Below, in pieces: positions 285 to 39,100 of a stretch of 44,081 nt of DNA; the first letter of the stretch is position 1, and each line of letters begins with the position of its first letter. Source of the DNA: Pseudobacteriovorax sp. (GTDB lineage: Bacteria > Bdellovibrionota_B > Oligoflexia > Oligoflexales > Oligoflexaceae); the NCBI GenBank assembly GCA_013215145.1, contig JABSRP010000053.1:1-44081 (forward strand), given 5' to 3'. The notes under the pieces were generated by a model. It was given only the letters and a program-made list of their open reading frames with translations, was not told the DNA's origin and did no database searches. The position numbers and the translations under genes are program-made.

Positions 285-328
285 ATAGTGTGCCCGATTT
301 GAAGCTATAGTGTCCCCAAATTGAAGCA
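285..328. repeat. Two tandem imperfect 22-bp direct repeats (tatagtgtgcccgatttgaagc / tatagtgtccccaaattgaagc) inside a ~930-bp non-coding stretch
   Basis: Read directly from the sequence; 18 of 22 positions are identical and the copies are head-to-tail with no gap. Confidence 0.6.
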
Positions 329-1252: not shown

Positions 1253-1786
1253 TTTTAGTTTCCTATTTTTAAATTCATTTTGTTAACGTAAAGAGGAGAA
1301 ATAAGTTTGAAATTTATTGCAGAATTTCTTAAGAGAAACGTAATTTCTTCATTAACATATTTGATTAACAGTAAAAAAATCTATAGACTAGGAGCTAACA
1401 CCCTGATTCACGAGGGATTTTATCTCTATCTGCGCTGAGAACTCCCCTAATAGAGACTGCTTACAATAACTAGAATAAATATGTTGCGTTGCCGTGGCTT
1501 ACGGATTTACCTCACCCTGGATAACTCTTAAAAAAATCTATTTTATATCAATGATATCATATGGTTAACGATCATAGTCGCAACGTTATTTTACCCACTA
1601 AACTTCCTCATATCCTCTAACTATCGTCCGTAACCGCCAATAAATATCCACTTAAACTCAAACACGATTGGTTTTTCCTTCCTTTAAACCCCTAGCAATC
1701 AAACCATTTCCAAGATATTCCTTACTGTGGTTCGTTAAAAAAGATGCTTGAAGCCTAAAAAAAACTAATAACTGGAGTGATCAAAC

Positions 1787-2086
1787 ATGAGTTTTGAAAT
1801 GGTAGTGGGATTGAATGTAAAAGATGATGCCTTATATGCTTCATACAGGGATGCAATGACCCCCATTTTAGTTAAGTTTGGTGGTGGATTTCGATATGAT
1901 TTTGTAGTCTCACAGGTTTTAAAAAATGATGAAAGAAGACCTATCAATCGAGTTTTTACAATTCACTTCGAAAACAAGGACAGCATGGAAAAATTTTTCT
2001 CAGATCCAGAATACGTTAGTGCAAAAGAAATGTTCTTCGAGAAGTCAGTCGGAGATACCACCATCATTTCGCAGTACGAAAGATAG
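1787..2086 (+). CDS. DUF1330 family protein (Dabb-like, ~99 aa)
   Basis: The length and pattern (KFGGGF ... RVFTIHFENKDSMEKFFSDPEY) match the DUF1330 family. A GGAG sits 8 nt upstream of the ATG. Confidence 0.55.
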   Translation: MSFEMVVGLNVKDDALYASYRDAMTPILVKFGGGFRYDFVVSQVLKNDERRPINRVFTIHFENKDSMEKFFSDPEYVSAKEMFFEKSVGDTTIISQYER

Positions 2087-2198
2087 TAGTCAAATGCCAT
2101 GTTCACAGTTCAAGGAGAATCCTTGGGCTCCACTGCCCTACCATCAGACAAATTTCTGCAGAAAAAAATATGAAAATTACAATTGCTATATCGAAAGG

Positions 2199-5100
2199 CT
2201 AACCTGCTTCGTCGAATTGATGTAAGTCAGATTTTGTCTTGGAAACCAAATCGCTGATCTCACCCGATAGTTTTGTAGACCGACCTGCTAGCTGCTTAAC
2301 TTCAGAAGCTACTACAGCAAACCCTTTACCAGCTTCCCCGGCTCGTGCAGCTTCAATGGTTGCATTTAAAGCCAATAGGTTCGTTTGACCTGCTACCTTG
2401 ACAATTGATTTCGAGGATTTTTCGACGTTTTCTAACACGTCGCTGACTATTCTTCGCGACTCGATGATGGCTAAATTTTTTTCCGTTTGATCATTGAAAA
2501 TCCCGATCACATAGGCTAGTTCACCATAACCATCTGGTATAGCCTGCAAGGTTCCTGTTGCATAAACTGTTTCATTATCACCACAGGAAACTTTCAAATC
2601 AATTTTCTGACTTTTGCCTTGAATGGCATGTTCCCATTGTTTCTTATCAAAGACTTGGGAAGCGTTTAAAATGGGTTCTGACATGTGATCGCTAGAGATT
2701 TTGAATGTTTCCTTGGCTAATTGGTTGCTTCTCCTCAGTTTTCCAGAAATATCCCACTCCATAACTAGGCTTGAATTTTCAATAGACTCTATTTTCTTGC
2801 TTGATTCAATCGACAAGTTTTTAGTTGATGAAATATTAGCCTGTATCGAAATAAATCTTTCAACGTCACCGTGCTGGTTTAAAATAGGATTAACAGATAA
2901 TGAAATCCAATAGGCTTCCTTACTTTTAGTGTAATTTAGAATCTCCGTATAGAAAGGTTTTTTATTTTCCAAATTCGCTCTAATATCACTAATTGTATTT
3001 TTATCTGTCAAAGGACCTTGGAGTAGAGTTCCAGGCTTATTGCCCTTAGCATCCTCGAAAGTATAACCGGTTAATTTAGTAAAACCAGGATTGACATATT
3101 CAATCTGACCTTTTGGATCTGTTATCACAACACTATTGTCCGTCTCGTTGGCTACGAGCGATAGAATTTCAATTTTCTCTCTCTCTAAAATTTGCTGTGT
3201 TATGTCAACAGCATATTTTACAACTTTGAATGGCTTGCCAGAGGCGTCGTTTATTGGATTATAGGTTGCTTGAATCCAGACCTTTTTTCCATGATTTCCA
3301 ACGCGTTCATATTCCCCCTCTTGGAAATGACCCTCCTTTAGATTATTCCAAAACTCTCTATATTCTCTTGAATTTGCATAATCAGGAGTCGCAAAGATTC
3401 TATGATGCTTGCCTTTGATTTCATCTAGTCTGTACCCCATACAAGCTAAAAAGTTTTCATTGGCATCAAGTATATTTCCCTCGAGGTCAAATTGGATCAC
3501 AGCTTGGGATTTTCCTATCGCTTCAATCTGTCCCTCATAATCAGCACTTTTTAACTTATCATTGGTAATATCTGTTGCGTATTTAACAACTTTAAAGGGT
3601 TTACCTGATGGGTCACAAATAGGATTGTATGTGGCTCGAATCCAAACGCTTTCGCCATTTTTTCTAACCCTTTCAAATTCACCTTCGTGGTAATGCCCAG
3701 TTTTCAATTTTTCCCAAAATTCTTTATATTTCGTAGAATTTGCATAATCTGCTTTAGCAAAGATTTTGTGATGACGTCCTTTAATCTCACCTAATTGGTA
3801 ACCCATGCAAGTTAGAAAATTGTCATTTGCTTCAAGTATATTTCCTTCGAGGTCAAATTGGATCACAGCTTGGGATTTTCCTATCGCTTCAATCTGTCCC
3901 TCATAATCAGCACTTTTTAACTTATCATTGGTAATATCTGTTGCGTATTTAACAACTTTAAAGGGTTTACCTGATGGGTCACAAATAGGATTGTATGTGG
4001 CTCGAATCCAAACGCTTTCGCCATTTTTTCTAACCCTTTCAAATTCACCTTCGTGGTAATGCCCAGTTTTCAATTTTTCCCAAAATTCTTTATATTTCGT
4101 AGAATTTGCATAATCTGCTTTAGCAAAGATTTTGTGATGACGTCCTTTAATCTCACCTAATTGGTAACCCATGCAAGTTAGAAAATTGTCATTTGCTTCA
4201 AGTATATTTCCTTCGAGGTCAAATTGGATCACAGCTTGGGATTTTCCTATCGCTTCAATCTGTCCCTCATAATCAGCACTTTTTAACTTATCATTGGTAA
4301 TATCTGTTGCGTATTTAACAACTTTAAAGGGTTTACCTGATGGGTCACAAATAGGATTGTATGTGGCTCGAATCCAAACGCTTTCGCCATTTTTTCTAAC
4401 CCTTTCAAATTCACCTTCGTGGTAATGCCCAGTTTTCAATTTTTCCCAAAATTCTTTATATTTCGTAGAATTTGCATAATCTGCTTTAGCAAAGATTTTG
4501 TGATGACGTCCTTTAATCTCACCTAATTGGTAACCCATGCAAGTTAGAAAATTGTCATTTGCTTCAAGTATATTTCCTTCGAGGTCAAATTGGATCACAG
4601 CTTGGGATTTTCCTATCGCTTCAATCTGTCCCTCATAATCAGCACTTTTTAACTTATCATTGGTAATATCTGTTGCGTATTTAACAACTTTAAAGGGTTT
4701 ACCTGATGGGTCACAAATAGGATTGTATGTGGCTCGAATCCAAACGCTTTCGCCATTTTTTCTAACCCTTTCAAATTCACCTTCGTGGTAATGCCCAGTT
4801 TTCAATTTTTCCCAAAATTCTTTATATTTCCTAGAGTTTGCATAATCCGCTTTAGCAAAGATTTTGTGATGACGTCCTTTAATCTCATCTAATTGGTAAC
4901 CCATGCAAGTTAAAAAATTGTCATTTGCTTCAAGTATATTGCCTTCGAGATCAAATTGAATCACAGCCTGAGATTTTCCAATGGCCTCGATTTGCCCTTC
5001 GTTGTCTGCCCGACGTTTTTTTTCCTCGGTGATATCAGTCGCATATTTTACTACCTTGTAAGGCTTTCCGGAGGCATCTTTGATGGGGTTATAGGTTGCC

Positions 5101-5756
5101 TGTATCCAAATGCTTTCGCCATTTTTACCGACTCGTTCAAATTCTCCTTCGTAATAGGTACCTGATTTGAGATTACGCCAAAAATCTTGATACTCTGGAG
5201 ATCTAGCATAGTCTGGTTTTGCAAAGATTTTATGATGCTTACCCTTTATTTCGTCAATTGTAAAACCTACGGTCTTCAAAAAATTCTCGTTTGCATCCAA
5301 GATAATTCCATCAAGATTAAATTGAATCACTGCCTGAGACTTTCCTATAGCCTGGATTTGTCCCTCGAAATCGGCATTTTGCATCTTGTTTTTTGTAATG
5401 TCAGTAGCAATTTTTACAATCTTGTAAGGCTTCCCCAAATCGTCAAAAATAGGGTTATAACTAGCTCGAATCCAAACGCTTTGACCACTTTTTGAAAAGC
5501 GCTCAAACTCTCCTTCTTGGTATTTCCCGCTTTTTAGAATTTTCCAGAAGTTTTTATATTCTTCTGAATTGCGGTATTTTTCATTAACAAACATACTATG
5601 ATGCTTCCCTTTTATCTCCTCTAAGCTGAATTCAACAGTTGTCAAAAAGTTCTCGTTCGCATCTAAAATATTCCCATCTAAATCAAACTGGATGACAGCA
5701 GACGATTTGATAACTGCTTCAAGAATTGCCTTAATATCATTTGAATTAAAATCCAT
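2199..5756 (-). CDS. Soluble chemoreceptor-like protein of 1185 aa. It has at least 9 tandem PAS domains, 7 of them a 122-aa unit, followed by a short MCP signalling-domain fragment
   Basis: A 122-aa PAS unit (…[22 protein letters not shown]…GRHHKIF…[28 protein letters not shown]) recurs 7 times and is followed by 2 further PAS-like modules. The C-terminus contains the canonical MCP hairpin-tip motif [35 protein letters not shown]. No hydrophobic TM segment is present. Confidence 0.85.
3481..4945. repeat. 366-bp tandem repeat array inside the PAS-MCP gene. Four units begin at 3481, 3847, 4213 and 4579, and 3481-~4827 is 100% identical between units
   Basis: Direct comparison of the four stretches shows identical nucleotides over about 1.35 kb. 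The flanking units, down to ~3230 and up to ~5700, are progressively diverged copies of the same 366-bp/122-aa PAS module. Confidence 0.9.
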
Positions 5757-5997
5757 GCGAACCTCCTAAGTTGCTAATCTAGGTTTTCGGAGAAAATAGA
5801 AAAAAATTAATATCCTGGATATTTTTTAATGCTTTTTCAGAGACATATAGAGATTTATAACTCTAACGAATAAGTCTTTTTGATGGAAGTGTCTATTTCC
5901 AAGAAGAAATTCTGAGTTTGGTACTAAGGGTGGGTTACCTTCGATTTCAACCTTTGCATAGCAAAAAGGAACTCACTCATTGCTATGCACGAAGACC

Positions 5998-6636
5998 TTA
6001 TTCTATGCTGTCGCTTTCTTCTTCCGCCTTATCATCGTCTTGGTCTTCTTCTTCATTGTCATCGTCTTCGTTTTCTTCTTCGTCTTCATTATTTACAGTA
6101 TCAAGGTCACAGTCACTCGAAGGTACTGTTTCATACTCGAATTCACCAATGGATGCGCTGTTAAGCTCAGTTTTGAGAACCTGTGCATTGCAGAAGGATT
6201 CGATTTCGACCTCTTCAACAGATGTCATGGCAACCTCAACACAATAAAGACCGTTCGGATTGCCTAAACTTACTTCGATTTCACCAGCGTTTTCTCCAGG
6301 GATTTTGATAAGTACAATTTCTGGTGTTTCGGTTGTCTGTGCATCTTCGATCTCTATTTCCTCTATGTTGTTAGGGACGATTGCCTCGATGATGCGATAG
6401 TCAAGGGCATCGCCGACCTTGAAGTCTTCTAAGTTTTCCATTGCTGAAAGGCACGAGCCGAGAGTCCCTGGAATGTCGCCTGTCTCAAGTAGGTTCTCCA
6501 CTTGGATTTCGTTTAAAGCAGCCTCGCGATTAAACTGATCTGATCCTGTGAATTTGGTATCGTTAAGATTATCAGAATTACAGTTTGCTTGGCTCAAAAG
6601 ACTAAGACTTAAAGTCAGTTTCAGTATTTGTTTCAT
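5998..6636 (-). CDS. Secreted, highly acidic protein with a poly-Asp/Glu C-terminal tail. It may be a lipoprotein
   Basis: The ATG at 6636 gives MKQILKLTLSLSLLSQANC…, a signal peptide with Cys directly after it. The ORF also extends to a TTG at 6672. The C-terminus reads NEDEEENEDDDNEEEDQDDDKAEEESDSIE. Confidence 0.6.
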   Translation of the reverse strand: MKQILKLTLSLSLLSQANCNSDNLNDTKFTGSDQFNREAALNEIQVENLLETGDIPGTLGSCLSAMENLEDFKVGDALDYRIIEAIVPNNIEEIEIEDAQTTETPEIVLIKIPGENAGEIEVSLGNPNGLYCVEVAMTSVEEVEIESFCNAQVLKTELNSASIGEFEYETVPSSDCDLDTVNNEDEEENEDDDNEEEDQDDDKAEEESDSIE

Positions 6637-9899: not shown

Positions 9900-10934
9900 T
9901 TAGTTTCTACTGAAGAACTCATCAAAGACCTCATCACTCCAGTAAGCGATGCCTTCGGCTTGATTGGGGGAGTGCCATGATTCTTCGGATTTATGGCTTG
10001 GATTGACACAAGCTACGGCTAGAAATAGTAGGCAGAGTGAGGCAAGTAAAAGACTTCGGTTGTTTGGACGTGTGTCTTTGAACGCTTCGATACGACTTCT
10101 CAGTTCACTTTTTCCCAGCTGGTGCCCTACAGTCAGCGGATTTAGCGAACCTTGTAAAAGGAGCTGGCAGTTTAATAGGGTAGCAGCGTATTTCTTACGT
10201 ATTGTTTTGCCCAAGCAAACCTGTCGATCGCAGCTTATTTCCATGGATTTGTTTAGTTGTTTAGCTAGAAAAATCAAAAATGGAGAGAACCATAAAACAC
10301 ACTTTAGTACTTGCATATAGGCATTGAGCTGAATATCTCTCCGTTTAATATGGACATTCTCATGCTCTAGGACTAATGCTAGCCCTTCGTCATCTAAACT
10401 CTTCGTCAGTATTTGAGGAATGAAAATTCTTGGACTAAAGACTCCGTACGACATGGGAGATAGGTTTGATTTATGGGTGTATACTGGGATCCCCTTAAAC
10501 TCGAATGCGCAGTGGGATGAAGCCTCTAGCTGTCGCATACGATTAAGGGCAAATACTAATTTCATTAGTAAGATGGATAGAATAATCGCATAGATTCCCC
10601 AGACGTAGATAAACATGGAGATTGTTGTCGGTTTCACTTCCCTTGACAATAACTTTGGCTCCATGATCTCTTCCATTGTACTAAAGATTAGTGAAGGATG
10701 ATCCTTATTTGGGGTTCTGAAGGTTGGGGTCACAAAATCTTCTGTATCAGCTATTTGAGATATCTTCGATGTTGGGAAATCAAAACTAGGAATAAAAATC
10801 AGCAGAGGTAATGCTAGTAAACTGATTCTCAAGTAATGAAACAAACCATGGGCCGCTACTCTCCCTCGCAAGAAAAACCAACCTACACAAATGAGAAAGG
10901 GATAGATAAAGGCATAAAGGAAAAAAATCATCAA
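9900..10934 (-). CDS. BlaR1/MecR1-type M56 family membrane metalloprotease signal transducer. It lacks the C-terminal beta-lactam sensor domain
   Basis: N-terminal TM helices are followed by the M56 signature SPMSYGVFSPRIFIP…LVLEHENVHIKRRD (an HExxH zinc motif) and MEISCDRQV. After a final TM segment only about 40 residues remain. Confidence 0.85.
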   Translation of the reverse strand: MMIFFLYAFIYPFLICVGWFFLRGRVAAHGLFHYLRISLLALPLLIFIPSFDFPTSKISQIADTEDFVTPTFRTPNKDHPSLIFSTMEEIMEPKLLSREVKPTTISMFIYVWGIYAIILSILLMKLVFALNRMRQLEASSHCAFEFKGIPVYTHKSNLSPMSYGVFSPRIFIPQILTKSLDDEGLALVLEHENVHIKRRDIQLNAYMQVLKCVLWFSPFLIFLAKQLNKSMEISCDRQVCLGKTIRKKYAATLLNCQLLLQGSLNPLTVGHQLGKSELRSRIEAFKDTRPNNRSLLLASLCLLFLAVACVNPSHKSEESWHSPNQAEGIAYWSDEVFDEFFSRN

Positions 10935-11302
10935 TCTAACTCACCTAGAAGTTGACGAATGCGCTCGATTTCATCCGATGAAAGCTTCTGATTCTCGATC
11001 AAATTCAATGCAAGATCAAAAGCCTTCCCCTCATAGACATCTTCAATGAGATTTTCGGCTACAGAATTTTGATAGCTAAGACGGTCAATGCGAGCGGTAA
11101 AACGATGCTCTTTCTCTGAATTGTCCTTTTTTAGATAGTTTTTCTTGACAAGATTATTCACTGCAGTTTGTAGCGAAGTATAGGCAGGAGGCGGATCTAG
11201 CATATTCAAGATATCACGAACACTGGCTCGATCATGATCCCAAAAGAGCTTCATAATTTTTAATTCATGGTCCGTAAGATTTTTATTTATGGGGCGACTC
11301 AT
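10931..11302 (-). CDS. BlaI/MecI/CopY-family winged-helix transcriptional repressor
   Basis: The protein is 123 aa. Its N-terminus LTDHELKIMKLFWDHDRASVRDILNML…YTSLQTAVNNLVKKNYL fits the penicillinase-repressor fold. Its stop overlaps the start of the M56 gene by 4 nt. Confidence 0.8.
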   Translation of the reverse strand: MSRPINKNLTDHELKIMKLFWDHDRASVRDILNMLDPPPAYTSLQTAVNNLVKKNYLKKDNSEKEHRFTARIDRLSYQNSVAENLIEDVYEGKAFDLALNLIENQKLSSDEIERIRQLLGELD

Positions 11303-14739: not shown

Positions 14740-15525
14740 TTAGATCAGTTCCATCATGGAGTGGTCCTCTAAGCCCTTCTCAATCTCTTCGAATAGCTTT
14801 TGCCAGTTTGCGCTGCCGAGGTTTTTCTTGTCGATAGCCAAATGGTGGAATTTACTCGCCTTTGTTTGTCTCAATCTGAGAAAATCCATATGACTAAACT
14901 TTTCTTTTGATAGATGGTTTAGACTTTTATAGCAAACTAGTTCATCTCTGGGCCTGCAGGCGACCAAAGACTTTACCGGAAACTCGTTGCTATCAAGGGT
15001 GTCTCGGACAGCATCTAGAGACTCAAAAAGAGCCCTGTAGAAACTCATCGGTAGATGGTCGTGCCTTCTAATCCCGTCTGGGGAAAGGCTTTTTATCGAT
15101 AGGCCGGGAAAAATTCTACTGGGCCATTTCAATAGTTTACTGCGTTTGCGGAGTGTGATGGCAGGTGCGATCATCACAGCATAAGAAAATGTCGATGATT
15201 GGGTTGAGAGTACATGATCCATAAATACCAAAGCACCTGTCGAAAAACCTAGAAAATAAGCGGGTAAGCTAGGTTGATTCTTACGGATATCAGCAACGCT
15301 TGATTCGAGACTATTGAAATTTTCTAGCCAAGAGTGCCGTGAGGGTTGGCTCCAGTCGCTAGTGTTTTCATGCCCCGCTAAGGTCAAGTTTAGAGTAATA
15401 AATCCAAGATCTTGAAGCTTTGTTCGAATATCTGTTAGGCAAGTCGCCTGATTATTCAAGCCGTGAGCTAAAGCAAAAATTCCTCTAGGGTGCTTTTTAG
15501 GAAACTGAATACAAACGTGACTCAT
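14740..15525 (-). CDS. Alpha/beta-fold hydrolase, lysophospholipase or S33-like
   Basis: The HG oxyanion-region motif (FALAHGLNN) and the nucleophile elbow GFSTG (GxSxG) are present. Length is 261 aa. Confidence 0.65.
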   Translation of the reverse strand: MSHVCIQFPKKHPRGIFALAHGLNNQATCLTDIRTKLQDLGFITLNLTLAGHENTSDWSQPSRHSWLENFNSLESSVADIRKNQPSLPAYFLGFSTGALVFMDHVLSTQSSTFSYAVMIAPAITLRKRSKLLKWPSRIFPGLSIKSLSPDGIRRHDHLPMSFYRALFESLDAVRDTLDSNEFPVKSLVACRPRDELVCYKSLNHLSKEKFSHMDFLRLRQTKASKFHHLAIDKKNLGSANWQKLFEEIEKGLEDHSMMELI

Positions 15526-17335: not shown

Positions 17336-17598
17336 TCTCCACTTAACGGGTTTGATATCGATAGGTATGTTTGCTATCCACGTTCCTCTTACGACAGTTC
17401 GAACGTTAGTTCAAACATTTAATAGACGTGTTCTGAAAAATATTGTATAATAAATACAAGCAGTTACATGAATTAAGTCAAAATATTTCAGTGATCTTAT
17501 CTAGTAAAGATTAACTAGATGGTTCTTTAGGTAAACCATCCGCAGTTGAAATGATGAATTAATTTCGGTAATGAGCCCTTACAGCATTCTGCTCAATA

Positions 17599-17952
17599 CT
17601 AAGCATCGAATGTCATGACGCTAGCAGTCGTGCAGAGAACATATATCAGCATGATGATCCTATCTATGCGTTGCTTGTTCAATCCTTTAGCGATGAATGA
17701 CTCTATGAGCCAATAAATGTAGGAATCGGTTTGGTTAGTGAGTCCTCGCTTTTCTCTGATCAGCCAGTGAAGCTTTGTTAGGAGGCAAAATCCGGGATAG
17801 GTGAAATAGCCTATTCCAAACCAAGAGACAGCCACCAACCCTTGTACGATTAAATGATATTCATGAGTGGCTGGATGAGCCCATCCAGCAATACTAAATA
17901 GAATAAAGATACAGTGAAAGGCGTGAAGACTGTAATCCATGATCCTAAGCAT
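17599..17952 (-). CDS. Small multi-pass membrane protein of unknown function. It is the last gene of the GlpD-like/DegT operon
   Basis: 3 hydrophobic helices. The start is ambiguous: the ORF extends to 17976, with an ATG at 17952 (8-nt overlap with the DegT stop) or at 17940 (4-nt gap). Confidence 0.45.
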   Translation of the reverse strand: MLRIMDYSLHAFHCIFILFSIAGWAHPATHEYHLIVQGLVAVSWFGIGYFTYPGFCLLTKLHWLIREKRGLTNQTDSYIYWLIESFIAKGLNKQRIDRIIMLIYVLCTTASVMTFDA

Positions 17953-19192
17953 TTTGCTTCCTCCAGGTTGATTCAATAAGCTCAGCAGAATTCATCACTT
18001 TGTCGAAAGCTTTTATGTACTGGGGAATCAACTCCTTATGGTCGATGAGCATAGGAATAGCGAGCATACTCTTACAGGTTGCCTCAGTAGTGGGTAGTGT
18101 CACAGAGCTGTAGTCTGGAATGTTACGATGTTCCAACCGAGAGAATTGATTGAAGGTACCCTCGGTAAAAAACGGCTGCTGATGCAGCAGTGGGTATCGT
18201 GGGACACCGATCATACATCCCTCTGCCTGAAGGGCAGCTTCTAATGCGCCTACGCTAATCAACTGTTCATCTTTCACTTGTGCTATAAGTTCGAAGAAAA
18301 CTCTTTTATTTGGCCGAGAGCTCTGACAAAAACTTAGTTGATACTTTTGTAGACCTTCTATTAGCATGTGACAGTTCATTTCTCTTTGTTTATTGGTATC
18401 ATCTAAACGCGCTAGGCTGTTTTTTGCAATTAATGCTGAGATGGGAGCGATTCTGGTTTTTAACCCAAACCCCGTCCCCGCGAAACGTCTAGCAGGTGAA
18501 TCTAGCTCAATAATGCGCGTAATGTCGCCAAGGCAGCAGGCTTTTTCGAAAAAACTATATTCATCACATAACAGGATTCCTCCTTCGCCGCCTGGAGCAA
18601 GTTTATCTCCTTGCAATGAAAGAACGCTAATATCTCCAAAGGAGCCACAGGGTTTTCCCTTATAGATAGCACCATGCGCATGAGATGCATCTTCAATCAC
18701 TTTCAAATTATGACGTTTCGCTATATCCAGGATCTCATCAACTTGACAAGGCATACCCCAGAGATGAACCATGACGATGGCCCGGGTTTTTTCGGTAATC
18801 AATGACTCGATATGTTTTGGGTCTGGTCCGAGAGTCATCGTCTCTGACTCGCAGAAGACCGGAACGGCACCGAGCCATGTCATAGGAGAGGCGGAAGCCC
18901 AAAAAGTTGCAGCAGGTACGATCACCTCATCTCCTGGTTTTAGACCTATAGCAAAGAAACTAGCGAGAAGAGCAGCAGTACCATTGCAGTGAGCTAAACC
19001 GTAGCGTCTTTCTGTTTGCTGACAATAATCTTGTTCCAGTTGTCTAATAACCGGGTGCGTAGAAAGGTCCCCATGTTTCATCAGCTCTGCAACGTCTTCC
19101 CAATCCTGTTTTTGGTATTTAACTCTTGTTTGAAATTGATGAACTTGATGGATTTCTTTTTGTCCGCCAAGGATTGCTGGTAGCTGTTTCAT
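17945..19192 (-). CDS. DegT/DnrJ/EryC1/StrS-family PLP-dependent aminotransferase
   Basis: Family-typical N-terminal region (…ASFFAIGLKPGDEVIVPAATFWASASP…), a central HLWGMPCQVDEILDIAKRHNLKVIEDASHAHGA segment, and Lys in SLQGDKL. Confidence 0.8.
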   Translation of the reverse strand: MKQLPAILGGQKEIHQVHQFQTRVKYQKQDWEDVAELMKHGDLSTHPVIRQLEQDYCQQTERRYGLAHCNGTAALLASFFAIGLKPGDEVIVPAATFWASASPMTWLGAVPVFCESETMTLGPDPKHIESLITEKTRAIVMVHLWGMPCQVDEILDIAKRHNLKVIEDASHAHGAIYKGKPCGSFGDISVLSLQGDKLAPGGEGGILLCDEYSFFEKACCLGDITRIIELDSPARRFAGTGFGLKTRIAPISALIAKNSLARLDDTNKQREMNCHMLIEGLQKYQLSFCQSSRPNKRVFFELIAQVKDEQLISVGALEAALQAEGCMIGVPRYPLLHQQPFFTEGTFNQFSRLEHRNIPDYSSVTLPTTEATCKSMLAIPMLIDHKELIPQYIKAFDKVMNSAELIESTWRKQNA

Positions 19193-19196
19193 AATT

Positions 19197-20693
19197 CTAT
19201 CCTTTCATTCTCATAGTAATTGTCGACTTGTAATCATCTACTGAAGCTTTTGCTTCAGTTTGATTGTTATGCTTTAGCGTAAGCGCAATTCTGTATAGAA
19301 CGCCCTCATGCTCAAAGTTTTCTCCAAAAGCTCCGTTGGGTACCCACTGAGCTAGATTAGTACGTCGCCTTAAGTAGTCCTCGAGTTCAAGGCACTGTGT
19401 TTGGTCGCGAGCCCATTGAGGATGGATCACAGTAAAACCTAAAATGTGGTCTGTGGGCGCGGTTTCTTCGGTTTTAAATGGTGGTGGTACTGGCTTTTCT
19501 TGTGCTTGCCTAATTAGCTTTTTAGCATGTTTAACGACACGTAGAGCGCCTTCACGACTACCGGTTATTTTTCCCCCATAGATAGTGATCCAAGGCTGGT
19601 CTTTCTGAGCATAAATAATGTGCTTTCGAGAAATCGCTAAGGAGGACTGAGGTAGTTTCTTTCCTTTTTTAACAGCAAGTGGCCGAATACCGACTCTGAT
19701 CGAGACGATGTCTCGACGACTTTTCTTCTCGGAAAAGTGCTGATTATATTTTTGTAATAGCCAATCGATATCTGTTTTTGTTGCTGAGAAACCTTCGTTT
19801 ATGGAATTGAGGTAGGTTTCCGTAGGACCCCACGTGGAGGTAGGGCCAAATGGAAGAAAGCAAAGGGTATCGCCATTTTCGCCCATTTCCACAACAATGG
19901 GATTCTGATGCTCCTTAGCTCTCTTAAAGTTAATGCTAACCCCTTTACTGAGAGCATGCTTATAAGGCGTCTGAACCTTTGCTAGATCGTTGATCGCATC
20001 AGCCCAGACACCCGCCGCATTTACGATAAGTTTGCATGGAATCTCCAAAATTTTATTGCTTTGCCGGTCACGGATTTTGACAACATGTCCAGTCTCCAGA
20101 GTTTTATGACTTATGAACTCGCAGTAATTAATGGCAATAGAGGTGTTTTGGTTGTTATGGATTTTCTCGTTTACATGGGATGCATCTGATGTGGAGAGAA
20201 AGCCCTCCTGAAATTTCAGAAACCTTTTTTTGTGTTGACCTTCGGTTAGGAGTGATTTACTCGGGCACTGACCTGTGATCTTGGGGATATCGCGCTTTAA
20301 CCGGCTCATGATCCAGTAGAACAGAACTGCAACATACATGAACAGAGTAGGGACTTTGCTATCGCTGTCTCCAATAAAGTATATATCCCTAGCTATCACT
20401 GAGGATTTGGCATGTTTAATAAGATGATCCCTTGCTTTCGAAAGTTTCCAAACGGACTTTATATCGAACTGCTTTAAGTAAAGGAGTCCTCCCCAGATCA
20501 TCATGGAGGACGCTTGACTTGTGCCGCTAGCGAAATCACTGCGATCAATCAGTAGAGTTCTGAACCCTCGAGTGGAAAGTTCCTGAAAGCAACTTGACCC
20601 TGAGATTCCCCCTCCTATGATGAGGACATCGAAGTCTGTGGATTCAATCCGTTTTATTCTTTGTTTGCGATCCATGGGCTTCTCCTGTTTCAA
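19197..20693 (-). CDS. FAD-dependent oxidoreductase of the glycerol-3-phosphate dehydrogenase/oxidase (GlpD/GlpA) family
   Basis: The N-terminus DVLIIGGGISGSSCFQELSTRGFRTLLIDRSDFASGTSQASSMMIWGGLLYL closely parallels the GlpD FAD-binding region. Its stop is 4 nt from the DegT gene start. Confidence 0.7.
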   Translation of the reverse strand: MKQEKPMDRKQRIKRIESTDFDVLIIGGGISGSSCFQELSTRGFRTLLIDRSDFASGTSQASSMMIWGGLLYLKQFDIKSVWKLSKARDHLIKHAKSSVIARDIYFIGDSDSKVPTLFMYVAVLFYWIMSRLKRDIPKITGQCPSKSLLTEGQHKKRFLKFQEGFLSTSDASHVNEKIHNNQNTSIAINYCEFISHKTLETGHVVKIRDRQSNKILEIPCKLIVNAAGVWADAINDLAKVQTPYKHALSKGVSINFKRAKEHQNPIVVEMGENGDTLCFLPFGPTSTWGPTETYLNSINEGFSATKTDIDWLLQKYNQHFSEKKSRRDIVSIRVGIRPLAVKKGKKLPQSSLAISRKHIIYAQKDQPWITIYGGKITGSREGALRVVKHAKKLIRQAQEKPVPPPFKTEETAPTDHILGFTVIHPQWARDQTQCLELEDYLRRRTNLAQWVPNGAFGENFEHEGVLYRIALTLKHNNQTEAKASVDDYKSTITMRMKG

Positions 20694-20792
20694 TCACCAC
20701 TCTGATAAGGACTTATCGCCGATTGGTATCGAAAATTGACATTTTATGATATAGTACTGAATAACGGTACTTTAGGGGGCGTGAGGTAGGTT

Positions 20793-21554
20793 GTGGCTGA
20801 TCAAGTGGATCGTATCCTTTCGATATTAAAACGAATTATAAAGTCTAGAGGGAAAACCTATCGCGACATTGCTGAAGGTCTAGGGATTTCTGAAAGCAGC
20901 GTAAAACGGGTGTTTTCCCACCAGACTTTTTCCTTGGCTCGTATGGAAGAGGTTTGCAACCTGATAGGAATTTCGATTTACGAAGTTTGCCGCATCGCGG
21001 AAAGCATTCCTGGTCAATCAGTGAGTCATCTTCCCTACGAATTGGAAGATATTCTAATCAAGGATGTTAAGTTTGCTACGTTAACCTACCTATTGATTAA
21101 CGAATGGCAAGTAAAACAGATATTAGCTGATTATCGATTCACAAAGGAAGAGGTACAAGGATACCTGAAAATTCTCGAGGACTATCAAATTTTAGAGCGG
21201 CATCCAAATTTTCGAATCCGCATGCTTGTCCCCAGGAGTGTCAGTTGGATTCCAGAAGGACCTCTAGAAAATCATTTTCGAGACTGGGTGAAAAAAGAGT
21301 TTTTGAATGATGCCTTTCAAGACGAAATGAGTTTATTCCGATTCTCTAGCGGCGAATTATCTGAACGATCTCAAAAAATTTTGCATAGAAAGATCAAGGA
21401 AACCATAGATTTATTTGACGAATTGGCCTCATTTGATGCATCTCTTGATCGTTCAGAAACAGAAAGCGTGGGAATGATAACCGCTATAAGACCGTGGTCG
21501 CTTCCTGCGTTTGAAGCATTGAAGCGTAACAGTACCTTGAAGGAAAACACATAA
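20793..21554 (+). CDS. XRE-family helix-turn-helix transcriptional regulator with a C-terminal domain of unknown function
   Basis: N-terminal HTH (KTYRDIAEGLGISESSVKRVFS). It is divergent from the GlpD-like operon, separated by 99 bp that contain a TTGACA. Confidence 0.7.
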   Translation: MADQVDRILSILKRIIKSRGKTYRDIAEGLGISESSVKRVFSHQTFSLARMEEVCNLIGISIYEVCRIAESIPGQSVSHLPYELEDILIKDVKFATLTYLLINEWQVKQILADYRFTKEEVQGYLKILEDYQILERHPNFRIRMLVPRSVSWIPEGPLENHFRDWVKKEFLNDAFQDEMSLFRFSSGELSERSQKILHRKIKETIDLFDELASFDASLDRSETESVGMITAIRPWSLPAFEALKRNSTLKENT

Positions 21555-33513: not shown

Positions 33514-34122
33514 GTGGACTTTTTGAGTTTAGCGTTTCGCTTACCAAGCTTGCCTTTCTCAATTCTGTTTGGACTTTCGATTCTCTATTGGGTGGGTACC
33601 ATAGTCGGGTTTTTCGACTTAGATGGTTTGGACCTAGATTTCGAGATAGGCGACGTTTCAGCTTTGGGTAAGGTCTTAGACCTATTTGGAATTGGTAGAG
33701 TTCCAAGCTCTATTTGGCTGAGCTTTTTTGCCTTAAGCGCCCTAATCTTATCTATAAACCTTAATCACCTTGCCGATTCAGTGATTCCCACCTGGACCGA
33801 TAGCATACGGCTAGTGGTATTTGGTATTCCGGTAGTGATTGTTTCCTCGTTGTTGGCAAGGCTACTGTCATCGCCTTTTGCTCCTCTCTTTCGAGGATTA
33901 AATCGACAAAAGGTGTTTTCGATTGAAGGAAAGACTGTACATGTCACTTCGAGCTCGGTGGACCAGAGTTTTGGAATAGCAGAGTTTCGTGATGGCGGCT
34001 CGCCCATTATATTAGATGTCCGCAGCATTGATGAGGAAACCCTTGTGAAGGATGATTTGGCTGTTGTGGTACGCCATGACAAAAAAAATAACACCTATTA
34101 CATTCATAAACATATTACTTAG
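33514..34122 (+). CDS. YqiJ/NfeD-like inner-membrane protein (the short NfeD form with a C-terminal OB-fold). It is the flotillin partner
   Basis: N-terminal TM helices, a FGIGRVP motif, and a C-terminal beta-rich segment (GSPIILDVRSIDEETLVKDDLAVVV). Both match the E. coli YqiJ layout. GTG start with AAGGAGAG 5 nt upstream. It is followed 16 nt later by a flotillin gene, as in yqiJ-yqiK. Confidence 0.65.
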   Translation: MDFLSLAFRLPSLPFSILFGLSILYWVGTIVGFFDLDGLDLDFEIGDVSALGKVLDLFGIGRVPSSIWLSFFALSALILSINLNHLADSVIPTWTDSIRLVVFGIPVVIVSSLLARLLSSPFAPLFRGLNRQKVFSIEGKTVHVTSSSVDQSFGIAEFRDGGSPIILDVRSIDEETLVKDDLAVVVRHDKKNNTYYIHKHIT

Positions 34123-34137
34123 TAGAAGGTTTCAGGT

Positions 34138-36132
34138 ATGGAAAATGTTTTTATTAATTCAGGAATTGTCATTTTTGCAAGTGTCAGCTTGTTTATCTTG
34201 GGAATCGTATTTTTCATAACGCGTTTCCTGAGAAAGGTTGAACCAGGAAAAGCTCTGATTATTATTAATCCGTTCAAAAAGAATATGGCTGTTAGCTTCA
34301 CAGGAGGCGTCGTAATCCCTGTCATCCATCGTGCTGAGGTTATGGATATTTCGACCAAACAAGTTGTGGTTGAAAGGCGTGGAAAAGATGGTCTGATATG
34401 CAAAGATAATATTAGAGCTGATATTTCAGTTAACTTCTATATCAGAGTCAATAATACAGTAGAAGACGTGCGCAACGTTGCTCAAAGTATTGGAGTTGAT
34501 CGAGCCTCCCAGAAAGAAACCTTGGATGAACTATTTCAGGCCAAATTTTCGGAAGCTTTGAAAACAGTAGGCAAGAAGACCGATTTCGAAGAGCTTTTTC
34601 AGGAACGCGCTTTGTTCAAAGAAAAAATTGTTCAGGAGATAGGGCAAAACCTCAATGGCTACAGTCTGGAAGATACAGCCATTGACTATCTCGAACAAAC
34701 AGGTCTCGAATTTTTTGAGCCAAACAACATTCAAGATGCAGCCGGTATAAAAAAGATTATTGATATCACATTAGAGTTGAAAGAGCAGAAAGAAAAGCGT
34801 GAAACGGAAGCAACGGAGCGCATTCTTGAGCTAGACAGACAGAGGGCTGAGGCTAAGGCGCGTCAGGAAGCCGAAATCGCCATTCTCCAGGCGAGAGAAA
34901 ATGCTGAGCAGGAAAAAATCATCCAAGAAGAAAGGCAAAAAGCCGAACTTGCAAAGATCCGCGTTGACGAGGAATTACGAATTGCAGCGGAAAATATGGA
35001 ACGTCAGGTTGAAGTTGCTAAAAAAAGTAAGGAACGCACGGTTGCTGTTGAGACAGAGCGAGTTGAAAAAGAACGAGATCTTGAAAAGACTGACCGCGAA
35101 AAACTAGTTGCGCTTGCAGATATCGAAAAAGTGAGAGCGGTTGAAGATCAGAAGAAAACGATTCAAGAAATCATTAGACAGCGTGTGGCACTAGAACGAT
35201 CAGTGGCTGAGGAAGAAGAAAAGACTAAGGATACGGTAGCATTGGCTACTGCTAACAGAAACAAAACAGTACAATTAACAGCGGCGGAGGCCAATGCTGA
35301 AGAAAAGTTAGTAACCGAAATTAAATCTGCTGAAGCCAAAGAAAAAGCAGCAAAATATGCAGCTAATGAAATGGCAATACGCGCGGAAGCTGAGCTTGCT
35401 ACATCTAATCAGATCGCCGACGCAAAAAAAATCCTAGCCGAAGGGATCATTGCCGAATCTGCTGCGGTAGGTTTGTCTGAGGTGAAAGTAAAAGAAGCTG
35501 ATGCTGATGCTGTTCGGAAGCTGGGAGAGGCCGAAGCTCATGCCTTGACCTTCAAGTCTAGAGCTGAAGCCGAGGCCATTCGGGAAAAAGGAACCTCTGA
35601 AGCGCAAATTATTGCTGATAAGGCCAAGGCTATGCATGATCTAGACGAGGTGGGAAGAGAGCACGAAGAGTTTAAAGCCAGGCTTAATGTCCAGCAAGAA
35701 CTGGCTCTTGAAAAATTGACTGTTAGTCGCGATATAGCAAAAAATAATGCTCAGGTGATTAGTAAGGCTCTAGAAAATGCAAAGATTGACATCGTAGGAG
35801 GTGACCAAATATTCTTCGATAAACTAATTTCGGCAGTGAGTAATAGCAAGTCAATTGAAGCTCGTTTTCCAGAAGATGGAGTCTTAAATCAGGTCAAGGA
35901 TGTTTTTTTATCTGATGGAAACGGTGAGTTGATGACCAAGCTAAGAGGAGTCATTGATACTCTTGGTGTTGGGTCAAAAGCAATGAAAGATTATAGTATC
36001 GCGGGACTACTTAATAAATTGCATAGTGAGACAAAGGATTCGTCGATTCAGGGTGTTATATCTGGACTTCTTAAAGATGCTGAGTCCGCTGGGATCAATG
36101 ATCAGTCTTCGCAAATATTGTTTAATAAATAG
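34138..36132 (+). CDS. Flotillin-family SPFH/band-7 protein (664 aa, YqiK-like)
   Basis: An N-terminal TM helix is followed by an SPFH domain and a long Glu/Ala/Lys/Arg-rich coiled-coil (the flotillin-type EA repeat region). It is tightly linked to the NfeD-like gene upstream. Confidence 0.8.
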   Translation: MENVFINSGIVIFASVSLFILGIVFFITRFLRKVEPGKALIIINPFKKNMAVSFTGGVVIPVIHRAEVMDISTKQVVVERRGKDGLICKDNIRADISVNFYIRVNNTVEDVRNVAQSIGVDRASQKETLDELFQAKFSEALKTVGKKTDFEELFQERALFKEKIVQEIGQNLNGYSLEDTAIDYLEQTGLEFFEPNNIQDAAGIKKIIDITLELKEQKEKRETEATERILELDRQRAEAKARQEAEIAILQARENAEQEKIIQEERQKAELAKIRVDEELRIAAENMERQVEVAKKSKERTVAVETERVEKERDLEKTDREKLVALADIEKVRAVEDQKKTIQEIIRQRVALERSVAEEEEKTKDTVALATANRNKTVQLTAAEANAEEKLVTEIKSAEAKEKAAKYAANEMAIRAEAELATSNQIADAKKILAEGIIAESAAVGLSEVKVKEADADAVRKLGEAEAHALTFKSRAEAEAIREKGTSEAQIIADKAKAMHDLDEVGREHEEFKARLNVQQELALEKLTVSRDIAKNNAQVISKALENAKIDIVGGDQIFFDKLISAVSNSKSIEARFPEDGVLNQVKDVFLSDGNGELMTKLRGVIDTLGVGSKAMKDYSIAGLLNKLHSETKDSSIQGVISGLLKDAESAGINDQSSQILFNK

Positions 36133-36140
36133 GTATAGTA

Positions 36141-39100
36141 GTGACTATCAGTAATACGCTTACAGCTACGGGCGGCAACTTTGATATCATTAGAAAAAGA
36201 CTGATAACACAAAGCAAAGCCCTTGAGACGATACTAACGGATCTCAATCTAAGACGTAAAGATACCTTTGGAACTATCGAAAACAAGATTCTTTCGTCGG
36301 ATCGAGTTAATACACCTATCCCCTGTGTGGCTCGCGATATGGTAGCTCAGGGGGATACGTTACTTATGGCGTTTGAGGTCCATTTTGGATTAAAATCTTC
36401 GGTAAATGTTTCTGATATTTTTAGAACCTATCAATATATAGACGATAGATTTCAAGAGGTCGAAGCGACACTTATTGATGATGAACAGTTCTATCGCGAT
36501 CTTTCCGATTTGACTAAATTCTACAAAGATTGCCGATTTGCTAGATTTTTGAAGAAAAAAACATTTTTGTACATGATCTTTCATGTGGGGCGCGGTAGAG
36601 ATAAAAAAGTCTTCAAATGGGCCATTAATCCCGATGATAAACTAACTTATGTTGATAATAGATCAGATTTTGAAGTCGCTGATCCACCCCAATATAGTTT
36701 TGATTGGGAACGTATCACGCGCGATGATCATGTGTATATTGGTGAACCTCATATTAACGTTTCAGATCGACTGTTTGTTGACTGCTTGGGTGGATCGCTT
36801 ACGATAAGGATCGAGGATAACACCGAAATCGGTCATACGATTCTTCAAGAATCTGTTGATGAAACGGATCAAACCTTAGACGATGCGGTTATCGAATACG
36901 CCGTATTGGATCATATTATTATTCTCAAGATACTTCCCTACCGAGAGCAAGATGCCCGATACTTTATATATAACGATAAAAACGAAACCATTAAAAAGGT
37001 AGAGGATCTAAAAAACTGTGGAATCGCACTGCCTGAAAACGATGGACTGATGTTTCCTAACGGTTATTATCTAAGGAATGGTACTTTCCGTTCGTTTTCG
37101 CTAGAACGAAGCGATATGAAGTTCCAACAGTGTTTAGAAAGCCTGAATGGAGAAGATCTACTTTATGCCTTTCATGACCACGAGATGGGCGAATATATCT
37201 TAATCCAATATAACCGTATTGAAAAAACGGTAGGTCAACCTATTACCTGTCATGGATATGCTATATTTGGTAACGGAAAGATGGTGGTTTTTGGGGCTTC
37301 GCAAGAACCTATGAAGAGTCATAGTATTCAAACATGGAGCACATCGTTTATCGAAGATGCTAGCGTCTTTGAAGCTTCTGATGAATCTTCTATGGCGCGC
37401 ATAGGTAATAAAACATTGGTTGATGGTTTTTCTGACCTGTGGGAGATAACCAATTTAGCTAAAAAAGAAGAAAATACCTTAGCGGAATATAATGAATTAT
37501 TGAGGTTCATCCGAGAGTCTCAGGATAGGCATTATTGGTTTAGTGAAGAAGAGTTTTCCCAAATAAAACAAAAATTAGCTGATCTTCTGTCCACTGCTAC
37601 TTCTGCCGTCGATGAATTTGAAAAGGTGATTAGCGCAAAGAAAAAAAGTCATAAAGATTTTCAAGAGGCTGAGATCAATGTACAAAATCTTATTGATGCC
37701 ATAAAGATAGAGGGATTCGAAACTATTGATCCCTTCATTGAAAAGATCACCGATCTTAGATTGCAATTGGGTGAGGTTCTCTCACTGGCGGAAAATCAGT
37801 TTGCAAATGCCGAAGGGTTGGAAGTTCTTGAGGGACGACTTAAAGCAGAGCTGGATCAGCTAACGAGCTCTTGTAGTCGATTTCTTATGAGCCAAAAAGC
37901 GGTTCAGCCATTTCATGATCGTTTGGAGCAGATCTTATTGTCTATGGAGTCCGTAGAACGCTCAAAAGATCTAGAAAATGTTGATGCTGAAATCGCGAAA
38001 TATACTCTTCACCTAAATACATTAACGGATCTTATAAACGATTTGGCTACTTCCGATCCGAAGGATTCGGTTCAAATCATTGAACAATTATCTCAACTTA
38101 TTGCCGGGTCAAATCAAGTTAAAGCAAAATTCAAATCTATTCGAACCAACCTGCTTCACGAGGAGTTAGGAACCGAGTACCAAGCGCAAATGACTCTTCT
38201 GTCGCAATCGGTTTCTAGTTACCTGGAGCAAGTTGAATCTCTAGAAGATTGTGATAACTTTCTTGATCGAGTTCTCGGCAATCTAGAATCACTAGAGGTT
38301 AAGTTTTCCGAATTTCCAGACTATCTAAATGATCTTGCTGAAAAACGTGATGAATATTTTTCCGTGTTTCAGTCAAAAAGGGTTCAAATACAAGAAGCCA
38401 GCAATAAAAAAATAATGGCAATGATGGACTCTGGAGCGCGTCTTTTGAAAAGTATAAAAAAGCGCTCGATCCACCTCGAAACGTGTCAACAGATTTCTAC
38501 TTTTTTCGTCACCGACAGTATGGTTACCAGATTACAAACAGTTGCTGATGAGATGGCTAAACTAGGTGAGACGGTGAAAGCTGAGGATTTAAGGGGGCAG
38601 CTTAAAAAAATTAGGCAAGATGCCTTAAGGCAGCTGAAAGATAAACAGGATTTATTTCAACTTGGTGAAAATATCATAACTTTGGGTCAGCATAGTTTTC
38701 AAGTGAGTGACCTGTCGGTGGATCTCTCCATTATTGAGCGTAGCGATGGACCCAATATTCATATATCTAGTACTGATTTTTTTCAGGCTATTCCAGAAGG
38801 AAGTTTGAACTCTTCAAAAACTCTGTCTCAACAAACAGTCGTCAGTGAGACAAAAAAAGTATATCGATCGGTTTATCTCGCTTATTATTATGTGCAGAGT
38901 CTATATGCTGGCGAGAGGCCTTTAAATTTAAGTCAATTGCTCTCTAACTCAAGTAGTCTAGACGGTGTAGAGGATGAAGCCCTCGAAAAAGATATCCTTT
39001 CTTTTATGCAGAGTAGGTTAGACGAAGGCTATGAAAAAGGCGTACACGATAGAGATGGCTATAGAATTATCGGTCGTATACTTCCTATTCTCGCTCATGA

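Follow-up and report, generated by a model that had tools for sequence, protein, structure and literature searches.

A conserved pairing of a GlpD-fold flavoprotein with a DegT-family aminotransferase, and its possible role in aminating a glycerol-phosphoryl moiety

Which compound is handled by a flavoprotein of the glycerol-3-phosphate dehydrogenase fold that is encoded side by side with an aminotransferase and a small membrane protein? The question is raised by an operon in a contig from Pseudobacteriovorax sp. (a metagenome-assembled genome, recognized by 100% protein matches), whose whole 44-kb stretch is referred to here as the window. The operon encodes a GlpD-fold flavin adenine dinucleotide (FAD) flavoprotein, a pyridoxal phosphate (PLP)-dependent aminotransferase of the DegT/DnrJ/EryC1/StrS family, and a DUF2784 protein, and it faces a divergent XRE-type regulator gene (Table 1). 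The original prediction, made from the DNA letters alone, envisaged oxidation of glycerol-3-phosphate (G3P) to dihydroxyacetone phosphate (DHAP) by the flavoprotein and transamination of the latter to serinol phosphate. Listing of open reading frames (ORFs) confirmed the four genes in the described layout, and Pfam and NCBIfam searches supported the families to which they had been ascribed. The analysis below identifies the two enzyme genes as a widely conserved unit, reveals a rebuilt active site in the flavoprotein, and leads us to propose tentatively that the pair oxidizes and then transaminates a substituted, possibly lipid-linked glycerol-phosphoryl moiety.

An enzyme pair and its frequent membrane companion

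A scan of species-representative genomes unveiled at least 207 loci encoding the cassette, 80 of which were fetched for context along with 1,111 neighbouring genes. Adjacency was scored by tblastn with the window proteins. Eight loci lacked the flavoprotein, and since five of these are cut at a contig end, 75 loci rather than 80 were taken as informative. The flavoprotein gene adjoins the aminotransferase gene in 72 of them, in at least 10 phyla, an arrangement that is far beyond chance. The usual order is flavoprotein followed by aminotransferase, with the reverse in Pyrinomonadaceae and in locus L088. Pfam-annotated contexts in metagenomes and isolates agree with this conservation of the pair, and the cassette also occurs in thousands of metagenomic protein clusters. 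All the host lineages found in the scan are diderm.

The flanks of the pair are otherwise unrelated among loci. All-versus-all clustering of the 1,111 neighbour genes yielded no further partner in more than 8 loci, and this clustering disclosed no phosphatase, transferase, transporter, or further catabolic gene conserved with the cassette. Nucleotidyltransferase, flippase, and polysaccharide genes were neither conserved beside it nor present in the window. Domain scans of the window proteins also failed to detect sugar-nucleotide genes anywhere in the 44 kb, as the original prediction had stated, or glycosyltransferase genes, which are not conserved across the loci either. A sugar-nucleotide pathway as the default reading was thus rejected, as the window contains no such genes and the loci show none conserved. 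Since the pair is kept while other neighbours vary, the enzyme pair is the conserved unit. DUF2784, whose gene comes right after that of the aminotransferase in 45 of the 80 loci and is mostly missing from Verrucomicrobiota, Planctomycetota, Pyrinomonadaceae, and Binatia, is a frequent accessory. The cassette is self-contained and is probably horizontally mobile.

Three sets of candidate partners were dismissed as lineage-specific synteny, namely, ABC/FtsX genes (Nitrospinota only), sulfatases together with an Acetyltransf_6 GNAT in convergent orientation (Verrucomicrobiota only), and a phosphonate-binding protein (L005). The GNAT gene (PF13480, FemAB/BioF2-like) is found in L050, L052, and L054 (e.g., 9656 to 10756 in L050), where its end lies −4 to +2 nt from that of the aminotransferase gene and sulfatase genes flank it.

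The small membrane protein noticed in the operon proved to be a DUF2784 member (PF10861; 43.4 bits versus a gathering threshold of 29.7) with three hydrophobic segments. In the family, LHxxH is invariant within the first transmembrane segment, and GW, SW, and G-x-C-L-T motifs are conserved. A word-index homolog search with the window protein returned the query itself only. Exhaustive searching of representatives retrieved 261 relatives, nearly all of them stand-alone proteins of 115 to 165 amino acids (aa), with no fusions among them and few longer members, which have no second Pfam domain. The literature searched mentions DUF2784 only as Rv2044c of Mycobacterium tuberculosis, beside pncA. Conservation of intramembrane His and Cys residues favours a cofactor-binding or catalytic role over that of a passive anchor, and suggests that DUF2784 may contribute metal, haem, cofactor, or catalytic chemistry.

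These traits bear on whether the cassette could produce a soluble small molecule, i.e., a free amino-alcohol or amino-polyol acting as an osmolyte, a signal, or a secondary-metabolite precursor, with DUF2784 as the exporter or as an anchor of the dehydrogenase. Self-containment and variable flanks are what one expects of an accessory metabolic module, export could be served by a small membrane protein with several helices, and the aminotransferase most resembles Fic25 (see below), which acts on a small non-sugar metabolite. However, DUF2784 is missing in ∼40% of the loci, its invariant His, His, and Cys suggest a cofactor or catalysis more than transport, and the enrichment of LplT/Aas-type genes described below would be left unexplained. 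We thus deem a soluble product of this kind unlikely.

Two enzymes and their characterized relatives

The flavoprotein matches the DAO family (PF01266, 84 bits) and displays the N-terminal FAD-binding Rossmann motif DVLIIGGGISGS. Its best NCBIfam matches are GlpD models, yet it scores below every GlpD/GlpO/GlpA equivalog cutoff (134 bits versus 360 for NF008899, 116 versus 352 for NF009906, 115 versus 840 for NF033461, and 78 versus 553 for TIGR03377), and the DAO_C domain (PF16901) was not detected in it by the Pfam scan. Foldseek searches with the AF2 (AlphaFold 2) model (pLDDT 87.5) returned GlpD or GlpO as all top 10 matches (TMq 0.70 to 0.83), with full-length matches to Escherichia coli GlpD, Streptococcus GlpO, and the model of Bacillus subtilis GlpD at TMq 0.77 to 0.83 and E values of ∼1e-28. 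The next fold classes (Mycoplasma GlpO and the glycine, sarcosine, and D-arginine oxidases) appeared at E values of ∼1e-17 or worse. An amine-oxidase role was rejected because the E values for the glycine- and sarcosine-oxidase folds exceed that for GlpD by more than 10 orders of magnitude. The GlpD-like nature of the flavoprotein, as originally proposed, is thus well supported: it shares with solved GlpD/GlpO enzymes (PDB 2qcu, 3da1, and 2rgh) the overall fold, including the C-terminal helical region, the N-terminal FAD-binding GxGxxG motif, and a similar size (∼500 aa).

Identity to these enzymes is, however, ∼20%, and the active site differs. To compare sites, 59 family members were aligned with GlpD of E. 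coli (whose numbering is used) and Bacillus halodurans and with Streptococcus GlpO, which have ten substrate-site residues in common: K47, H50, R54, Y55, H233, R254, T270, D272, R317, and K354. Seven of these are replaced family-wide, i.e., K47M (57/59 members), H50W (59/59), R54L (55/59), R254D (52/59), D272E (59/59), H233 to F, Y, or S, and T270 to P, whereas Y55, R317, and K354 are kept. A new invariant Arg occurs at position 313. The C-terminal DxLxRRT motif is retained, and ∼45 to 50 residues of the C-terminal domain of full-length E. coli GlpD are absent. In sum, three cationic residues and two histidines have disappeared from the site, where Leu, Trp, Met, an aromatic residue, and Asp are found instead. 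The 2008 structure papers on GlpD and GlpO are said to place R54, Y55, R254, and K354 in contact with the substrate phosphate, and H233 and R317 at the reactive carbon. Judging from the alignment, the site is less cationic and more hydrophobic than in G3P enzymes, and the flavoprotein is predicted not to be a canonical G3P enzyme. Such remodelling suggests a substrate with less negative charge and greater hydrophobicity than G3P, which might also bear an amine.

These findings weaken the route via G3P and DHAP, in which soluble serinol phosphate would be made and then dephosphorylated or moved to a lipid or polysaccharide. The route does account for the GlpD fold, the GlpD models as best matches, and the retained R317, K354, Y55, and DxLxRRT, and an inositol-monophosphatase-family gene sits next to the cassette in one locus (L091). 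Its second step is established chemistry: Cj1437 of the Campylobacter jejuni capsule pathway and RtxA's N-terminal domain (RtxA-N) in rhizobitoxine biosynthesis transaminate DHAP to serinol phosphate, and the serinol (2-amino-1,3-propanediol) phosphate skeleton is the type of product that we propose for the cassette. On the other hand, the best score reaches 134 of the 360 bits required, seven site residues are replaced, and NCBI names the protein simply "FAD-dependent oxidoreductase" (the JGI label "glycerol-3-phosphate dehydrogenase" is automatic). Neither a phosphatase nor a transferase is conserved with the cassette. Furthermore, DHAP is a ubiquitous central metabolite, so that an aminotransferase acting on it needs no obligate dehydrogenase; Cj1437 and RtxA-N indeed draw DHAP from central metabolism without a dedicated partner, whereas pairing is near-obligate here. 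G3P as the substrate and DHAP as the intermediate are thus disfavoured, and we regard this route as improbable. The parallel with Cj1437 and RtxA drawn in the original prediction holds for the chemistry and for nothing beyond it. We take both enzymes to be HisC-like class I/II aminotransferases rather than DegT proteins, and their homology to the window aminotransferase is unlikely.

Assignment of the aminotransferase to the DegT family is firm, with 248 bits to PF01041 against a gathering threshold of 19.8 and just 25 bits to PF00155 in the Pfam scan. K197, within SLQGDK, aligns with the Schiff-base Lys in SFFGNK of GDP-perosamine synthase, and D168 aligns with the Asp that binds PLP, neither residue varying among 23 family members. 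Since the two catalytic residues are intact, the protein is an aminotransferase and not a His-type dehydratase. The AF2 model (pLDDT 83.5) retrieved DegT-family structures as all Foldseek top matches. Beyond the family level, its best NCBIfam equivalog is ArnB, at 157 bits versus a cutoff of 631, with PseC, LegC, DesI, WecE, and RfbH also far below their cutoffs, and identity to any solved structure does not exceed 30%. Relatives number more than 7,000 at E values of ≤1e-10. The best 120 matches listed are 51 to 58% identical, save the query itself and one match at 63%, and span Nitrospirota, Nitrospinota, Methylomirabilota, Desulfobacterota, and Proteobacteria. It is a fair statement that the aminotransferase belongs to a large and widespread clade of its own, which does not cluster firmly with the aminotransferases of uridine or thymidine diphosphate (UDP/TDP)-keto-sugars.

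The nearest structures to the aminotransferase model are Fic25 and RbmB/BtrR (TMq ∼0.82), followed by ArnB, perosamine synthase, and WbpE (TMq ∼0.72 to 0.76). Fic25, of the ficellomycin pathway (PDB 8gyh to 8gyj), and RbmB/BtrR share the longer, ∼420-aa DegT architecture with the window protein, and their own substrates carry no nucleotide: Fic25 transaminates an N-acetyl-diaminohydroxyhexanoate precursor, and RbmB/BtrR act on 2-deoxy-scyllo-inosose. They differ from the window aminotransferase in their low identity to it (24 to 26%), in their location within actinomycete or Bacillus antibiotic clusters, and in the lack of a flavoprotein partner of the type encoded here.

This comparison is also relevant to a possible role in the envelope glycan, whereby the pair would aminate a nucleotide-activated or phosphorylated sugar or polyol, e.g., cytidine diphosphate (CDP)-glycerol to CDP-serinol, to decorate lipopolysaccharide, capsule, or another polymer. 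Most characterized DegT enzymes use nucleoside diphosphate (NDP)-keto-sugars, as do the best PDB matches by sequence; the hosts are all diderm; and a phosphodiester or pyrophosphate substrate could account for the altered phosphate site. Nevertheless, no nucleotidyltransferase, glycosyltransferase, flippase, or polysaccharide gene accompanies the cassette, the structural neighbours of the aminotransferase lean to non-nucleotide substrates, and we know of no GlpD-type flavoprotein that oxidizes NDP-sugars. Decoration of a glycan by such a route thus appears unlikely.

A possible aminated glycerol and the lipid-type neighbours

Oxidation of a hydroxyl to a ketone and its conversion to an amine is the most economical reading of a GlpD-fold enzyme paired with an intact DegT aminotransferase. 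This part of the original prediction stood, unlike its assignment to G3P and DHAP. Known modules follow the same logic, with a hydroxyl oxidized to a carbonyl and then transaminated by the DegT product of an adjacent gene. GnnA/GnnB make UDP-GlcNAc3N for lipid A, KdnB/KdnA make Kdo8N, and NtdC/NtdA and KabC/KabA make kanosamine. The oxidizing partners in these modules are NAD(P)- or metal-dependent (Gfo/Idh/MocA or Fe-ADH types) and act on sugars. KdnA, NtdA, and KabA are among the PDB matches of the window aminotransferase, whose partner is instead a GlpD-type FAD flavoprotein with a DUF2784 membrane protein attached. The glpD genes, in turn, are not bound to an aminotransferase gene, as the flavoprotein gene is here. 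The oxidize-then-transaminate logic is therefore already known; the novelty lies in the GlpD-type flavoprotein and its rebuilt site, in the separate DegT clade, and in the DUF2784 partner.

Several considerations narrow down the substrate. Obligate pairing with the flavoprotein suggests an uncommon metabolite as the keto intermediate, and the remodelled site, together with the availability of DHAP in every cell, makes free G3P unlikely. As only two enzymes are conserved, the substrate would be a common cell constituent and the product either an end product or one that housekeeping enzymes process. These constraints are satisfied by a glycerol whose secondary hydroxyl is free and adjoins a phosphoester, and such a moiety also fits the LplT/Aas association. 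Accordingly worded, our proposal is a tentative one, which we hold to be possible and somewhat short of an even chance: the pair would oxidize and then transaminate a substituted, possibly lipid-linked glycerol-phosphoryl moiety. In the first step, the flavoprotein would, as its fold suggests, form a ketone from the secondary hydroxyl on a glycerol-phosphoryl-type moiety; like GlpD, it is probably a peripheral membrane protein that donates electrons to the quinone pool. The substrate is most likely not free sn-glycerol-3-phosphate and is more likely a substituted, less anionic, and more hydrophobic derivative, for instance the backbone of a lysophospholipid, the free head-group glycerol of phosphatidylglycerol (PG), cardiolipin's central glycerol, or a glycerophosphodiester (e.g., glycerophosphoethanolamine). 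In the second step, the aminotransferase would turn the keto group into an amine at the expense of Glu or Gln, giving a serinol-type (2-amino-2-deoxyglycerol) moiety. DUF2784 would be an accessory membrane partner in about half of the lineages, where it might serve as an anchor, provide a site for electron transfer or a cofactor, or present lipids.

The order of the two steps is unreadable from sequence and transaminations are reversible, which leaves room for a catabolic cassette that deaminates an environmental amino-polyol or amino-lipid and has the flavoprotein process the product, or for the aminotransferase acting first. The R254D and D272E replacements acidify the flavoprotein pocket and would suit an amine-bearing substrate. 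However, GlpD runs oxidatively towards quinone, a ketone derived from deamination would not be a substrate for the flavoprotein, and no transporter or further catabolic gene is conserved with the cassette. Operation in this direction is accordingly very unlikely.

Lipid-type genes constitute the only recurrent theme near the cassette, and they are in keeping with the lipid destination that the original prediction had considered among others. LplT/Aas-type transporter, acyltransferase, and acyl-acyl carrier protein (ACP) synthetase genes occur close to it in unrelated lineages, mostly on the same strand. They account for 9 of the 1,111 neighbour genes in the 80 loci; none of the 9 is more than 6 genes away from the cassette, and 5 adjoin it directly (Fisher odds ratio 8.0, P = 0.0038 for enrichment beside the cassette). 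At least six independent architectures were counted (Table 1), and these differing domain architectures and positions suggest that such genes were recruited repeatedly and independently. The E. coli LplT/Aas system, which transports and re-acylates lysophospholipids, has the same MFS, PlsC, and AMP-binding domains that, often fused, are found near the cassette, although the E. coli genes are unlinked to a flavoprotein or aminotransferase and the window itself contains no such genes. In the proposed pathway, LplT/Aas-type enzymes would presumably bring in the lyso-lipid substrate, or else acylate (or N-acylate) the product.

Two loci with unusual neighbours deserve separate mention. L088 (6707 to 13058) has the order aminotransferase, flavoprotein, and LplT-Aas-type fusion, and lacks DUF2784, whose usual place is taken by the fusion. 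Upstream of the cassette in the Nitrospira loci L035 and L036 (e.g., 1890 to 2552 in L036), a 214- to 220-aa protein with the histidine boxes HRHFMH, HHRTY, HHEMH, and HFLHH recalls membrane di-iron fatty-acid hydroxylases and desaturases; it has no Pfam match at an E value of ≤0.001.

A number of observations weigh against the proposed oxidation and transamination of a glycerol-phosphoryl moiety. Gene order, coupling, family-wide conservation, folds, catalytic residues, the remodelled site, and neighbour enrichment are observed, whereas the substrate, the step order, the product, and the role of DUF2784 are inferred. The roles of the replaced GlpD residues in phosphate binding and catalysis are those reportedly given in the 2008 structure papers. 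The lean of the aminotransferase towards non-nucleotide DegT structures is modest, its top PDB matches by sequence being NDP-sugar aminotransferases (7l7x, perosamine synthase, and ArnB), and we know of no DegT enzyme acting on a lipid-linked substrate. Transmembrane segments are absent from both the flavoprotein and the aminotransferase. LplT/Aas-type neighbours, the best hint of lipid metabolism here, occur in just ∼12 of ∼90 loci, with no nearby lipid gene in most. The phosphatase-family gene mentioned above (PF00459; 6204 to 6980 in L091), which lies co-directionally 20 nt upstream of the flavoprotein gene, is the one context that would suit a soluble product bearing phosphate, e.g., serinol phosphate. 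Another one-off neighbour pointing elsewhere is the divergent DedA/VTT gene of L090.

A bolder version of the proposal is that the cassette makes a new class of glycerophospholipids by replacing a glycerol hydroxyl (at sn-2 of a lyso-lipid or in the glycerol of PG or cardiolipin) with an amine, which we consider doubtful. If true, the product would be a lipid with a serinol backbone or headgroup, possibly zwitterionic or amide-acylated (like a sphingolipid, and able to withstand phospholipase A2). Its precursor would come from LplT/Aas-type enzymes, or these would N-acylate the product, with DUF2784 as a novel cofactor subunit in the membrane. Lipids of this kind would then be common across Nitrospinota, Nitrospirota, Desulfobacterota, Planctomycetota, Verrucomicrobiota, Acidobacteriota, and Proteobacteria.

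The literature searched describes neither a flavoprotein-DegT-DUF2784 cassette nor serinol-backbone phospholipids. The automatic labels given to cassette parts, "glycerol-3-phosphate dehydrogenase" and "perosamine synthetase," are probably both wrong. Carriers include nitrite oxidizers, sulfate reducers, and lineages of Planctomycetota and Verrucomicrobiota of environmental weight. If the product is an aminated glycerolipid or an envelope amine, the cassette would represent a new means of tuning membrane charge or building amide-linked lipids, a new substrate class for the GlpD and DegT families, and the first functional context for DUF2784. The question is accessible to experiment, as several hosts can be cultivated, namely, Chitinimonas sp. 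PSY-7, Spartinivicinus poritis, and Dentiradicibacter hellwigii.

Gene layout, regulator, and other features of the window

Table 1. Features of the Pseudobacteriovorax operon (window coordinates) and LplT/Aas- and other lipid-type genes near the cassette in other loci
Feature	Position	Strand	Remarks
GlpD-fold FAD flavoprotein	19197-20675	−	492 aa from ATG 20675; alternative TTG start at 20693
DegT/DnrJ/EryC1/StrS-family PLP aminotransferase	17945-19192	−	415 aa; PF01041
DUF2784 small membrane protein	17599-17952	−	117 aa from ATG 17952; PF10861
Divergent XRE/HTH_3-type regulator	20793-21554	+	253 aa; PF01381 borderline, also HTH_26
Divergent intergenic control region	20676-20792		Promoter-like site for the regulator and candidate operator palindrome
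Weak terminator-like hairpin	17517-17541	−	Terminator scan; 58 nt past the DUF2784 stop
PP-binding + AMP-binding + PlsC protein, 953 aa	Upstream of cassette		Two Desulfobulbus-type loci
PlsC + AMP-binding protein, 750 aa	Downstream of cassette		Methylomirabilota
MFS-PlsC fusion	9 nt upstream		Saccharospirillaceae genome
MFS + PlsC + AMP-binding tri-fusion	Adjoining cassette		L014
MFS + PlsC + AMP-binding fusion, 1,141 aa	33 nt downstream	Same as cassette	L088
MFS + PlsC + AMP-binding tri-fusion	4-5 genes off		Nitrospira
Acyl-CoA-ligase-like gene	61 nt upstream		L059
Serine esterase gene	8 nt upstream		L014

Start sites were revised for two of the operon genes. The flavoprotein most likely starts at the ATG rather than at the upstream TTG, as indicated by a GGAG ribosome-binding site (RBS) and by agreement with the 492-aa NCBI record. 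The ATG assigned to DUF2784, preceded by a GGAGG RBS and in agreement with a 117-aa NCBI record, is likewise its most likely start. With the revised flavoprotein start, the intergenic region extends over 117 bp instead of the 99 bp first given. The flavoprotein stop and the aminotransferase ATG are separated by the predicted 4-nt gap (TAG-AATT-ATG), and the DUF2784 start overlaps the aminotransferase stop by 8 nt. This tight spacing is indicative of a single, translationally coupled operon, as had been anticipated. The operon probably ends at the hairpin listed in Table 1, a placement of low confidence given just 3 G-C pairs and a poor T-tract.

The regulator scores 23.1 bits for HTH_3 against a cutoff of 23 in the Pfam scan. 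Its divergent position in the shared intergenic region is as described originally, whereas its membership of the conserved system did not hold: the gene is present solely in Pseudobacteriovorax, with a second copy in L007 (71% identity, same divergent position), and tblastn with the window proteins did not find it in the other 79 loci. The regulator is thus a local, lineage-specific addition to the operon. A promoter-like site for its gene (TTGGTA-16-TATGAT, 20723 to 20750) was identified by promoter scan, and directly downstream we noticed by eye an imperfect palindrome (AGTACTG-AATAA-CGGTACT, 20753 to 20771), whose counterpart at the equivalent position of the L007 intergenic region reads GGTACTG-TATAC-CAGTACT. 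An inverted-repeat scan of the intergenic region found nothing, because the palindrome is imperfect, and the promoter scan yielded no sigma-70-like site for the minus-strand operon in this region. The shared palindrome is a plausible candidate operator for autoregulation and for control of the divergent operon. The XRE-type regulator would have been acquired in Pseudobacteriovorax and probably binds the conserved palindrome over its own promoter.

Other genes of the window were recorded in passing. An alpha/beta hydrolase of the Hydrolase_4 type (14740 to 15525, minus strand) lies ∼2 kb from the operon, with nudC and a hypothetical gene in between. This family takes in lysophospholipases and monoacylglycerol lipases, and a link between hydrolase and cassette has no synteny support elsewhere. 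An unusually PAS-rich sensor of 1,185 aa, with ∼8 PAS domains followed by a partial MCPsignal domain, is encoded at 2199 to 5756 (minus strand). It coincides with a segment (1 to 6000) in which GC and AT skews are both negative and the GC content is 0.36 to 0.385 per 1-kb bin, compared with 0.38 to 0.46 in most other bins (mostly >0.40). A co-directional trio at 33514 to 41078 (plus strand), which resembles a conserved module, encodes a membrane protein similar to YqiJ_N, an SPFH/Band7 protein of 664 aa, and a protein of 1,645 aa in which DUF3686 ("ATPase involved in DNA repair"), DUF7902, and AAA domains occur. Finally, a BlaR1-type M56 peptidase/sensor is encoded at 9900 to 10934 (minus strand), and its start is overlapped by 4 nt by a 123-aa ORF (10931 to 11302) that sits where a BlaI-type repressor would.

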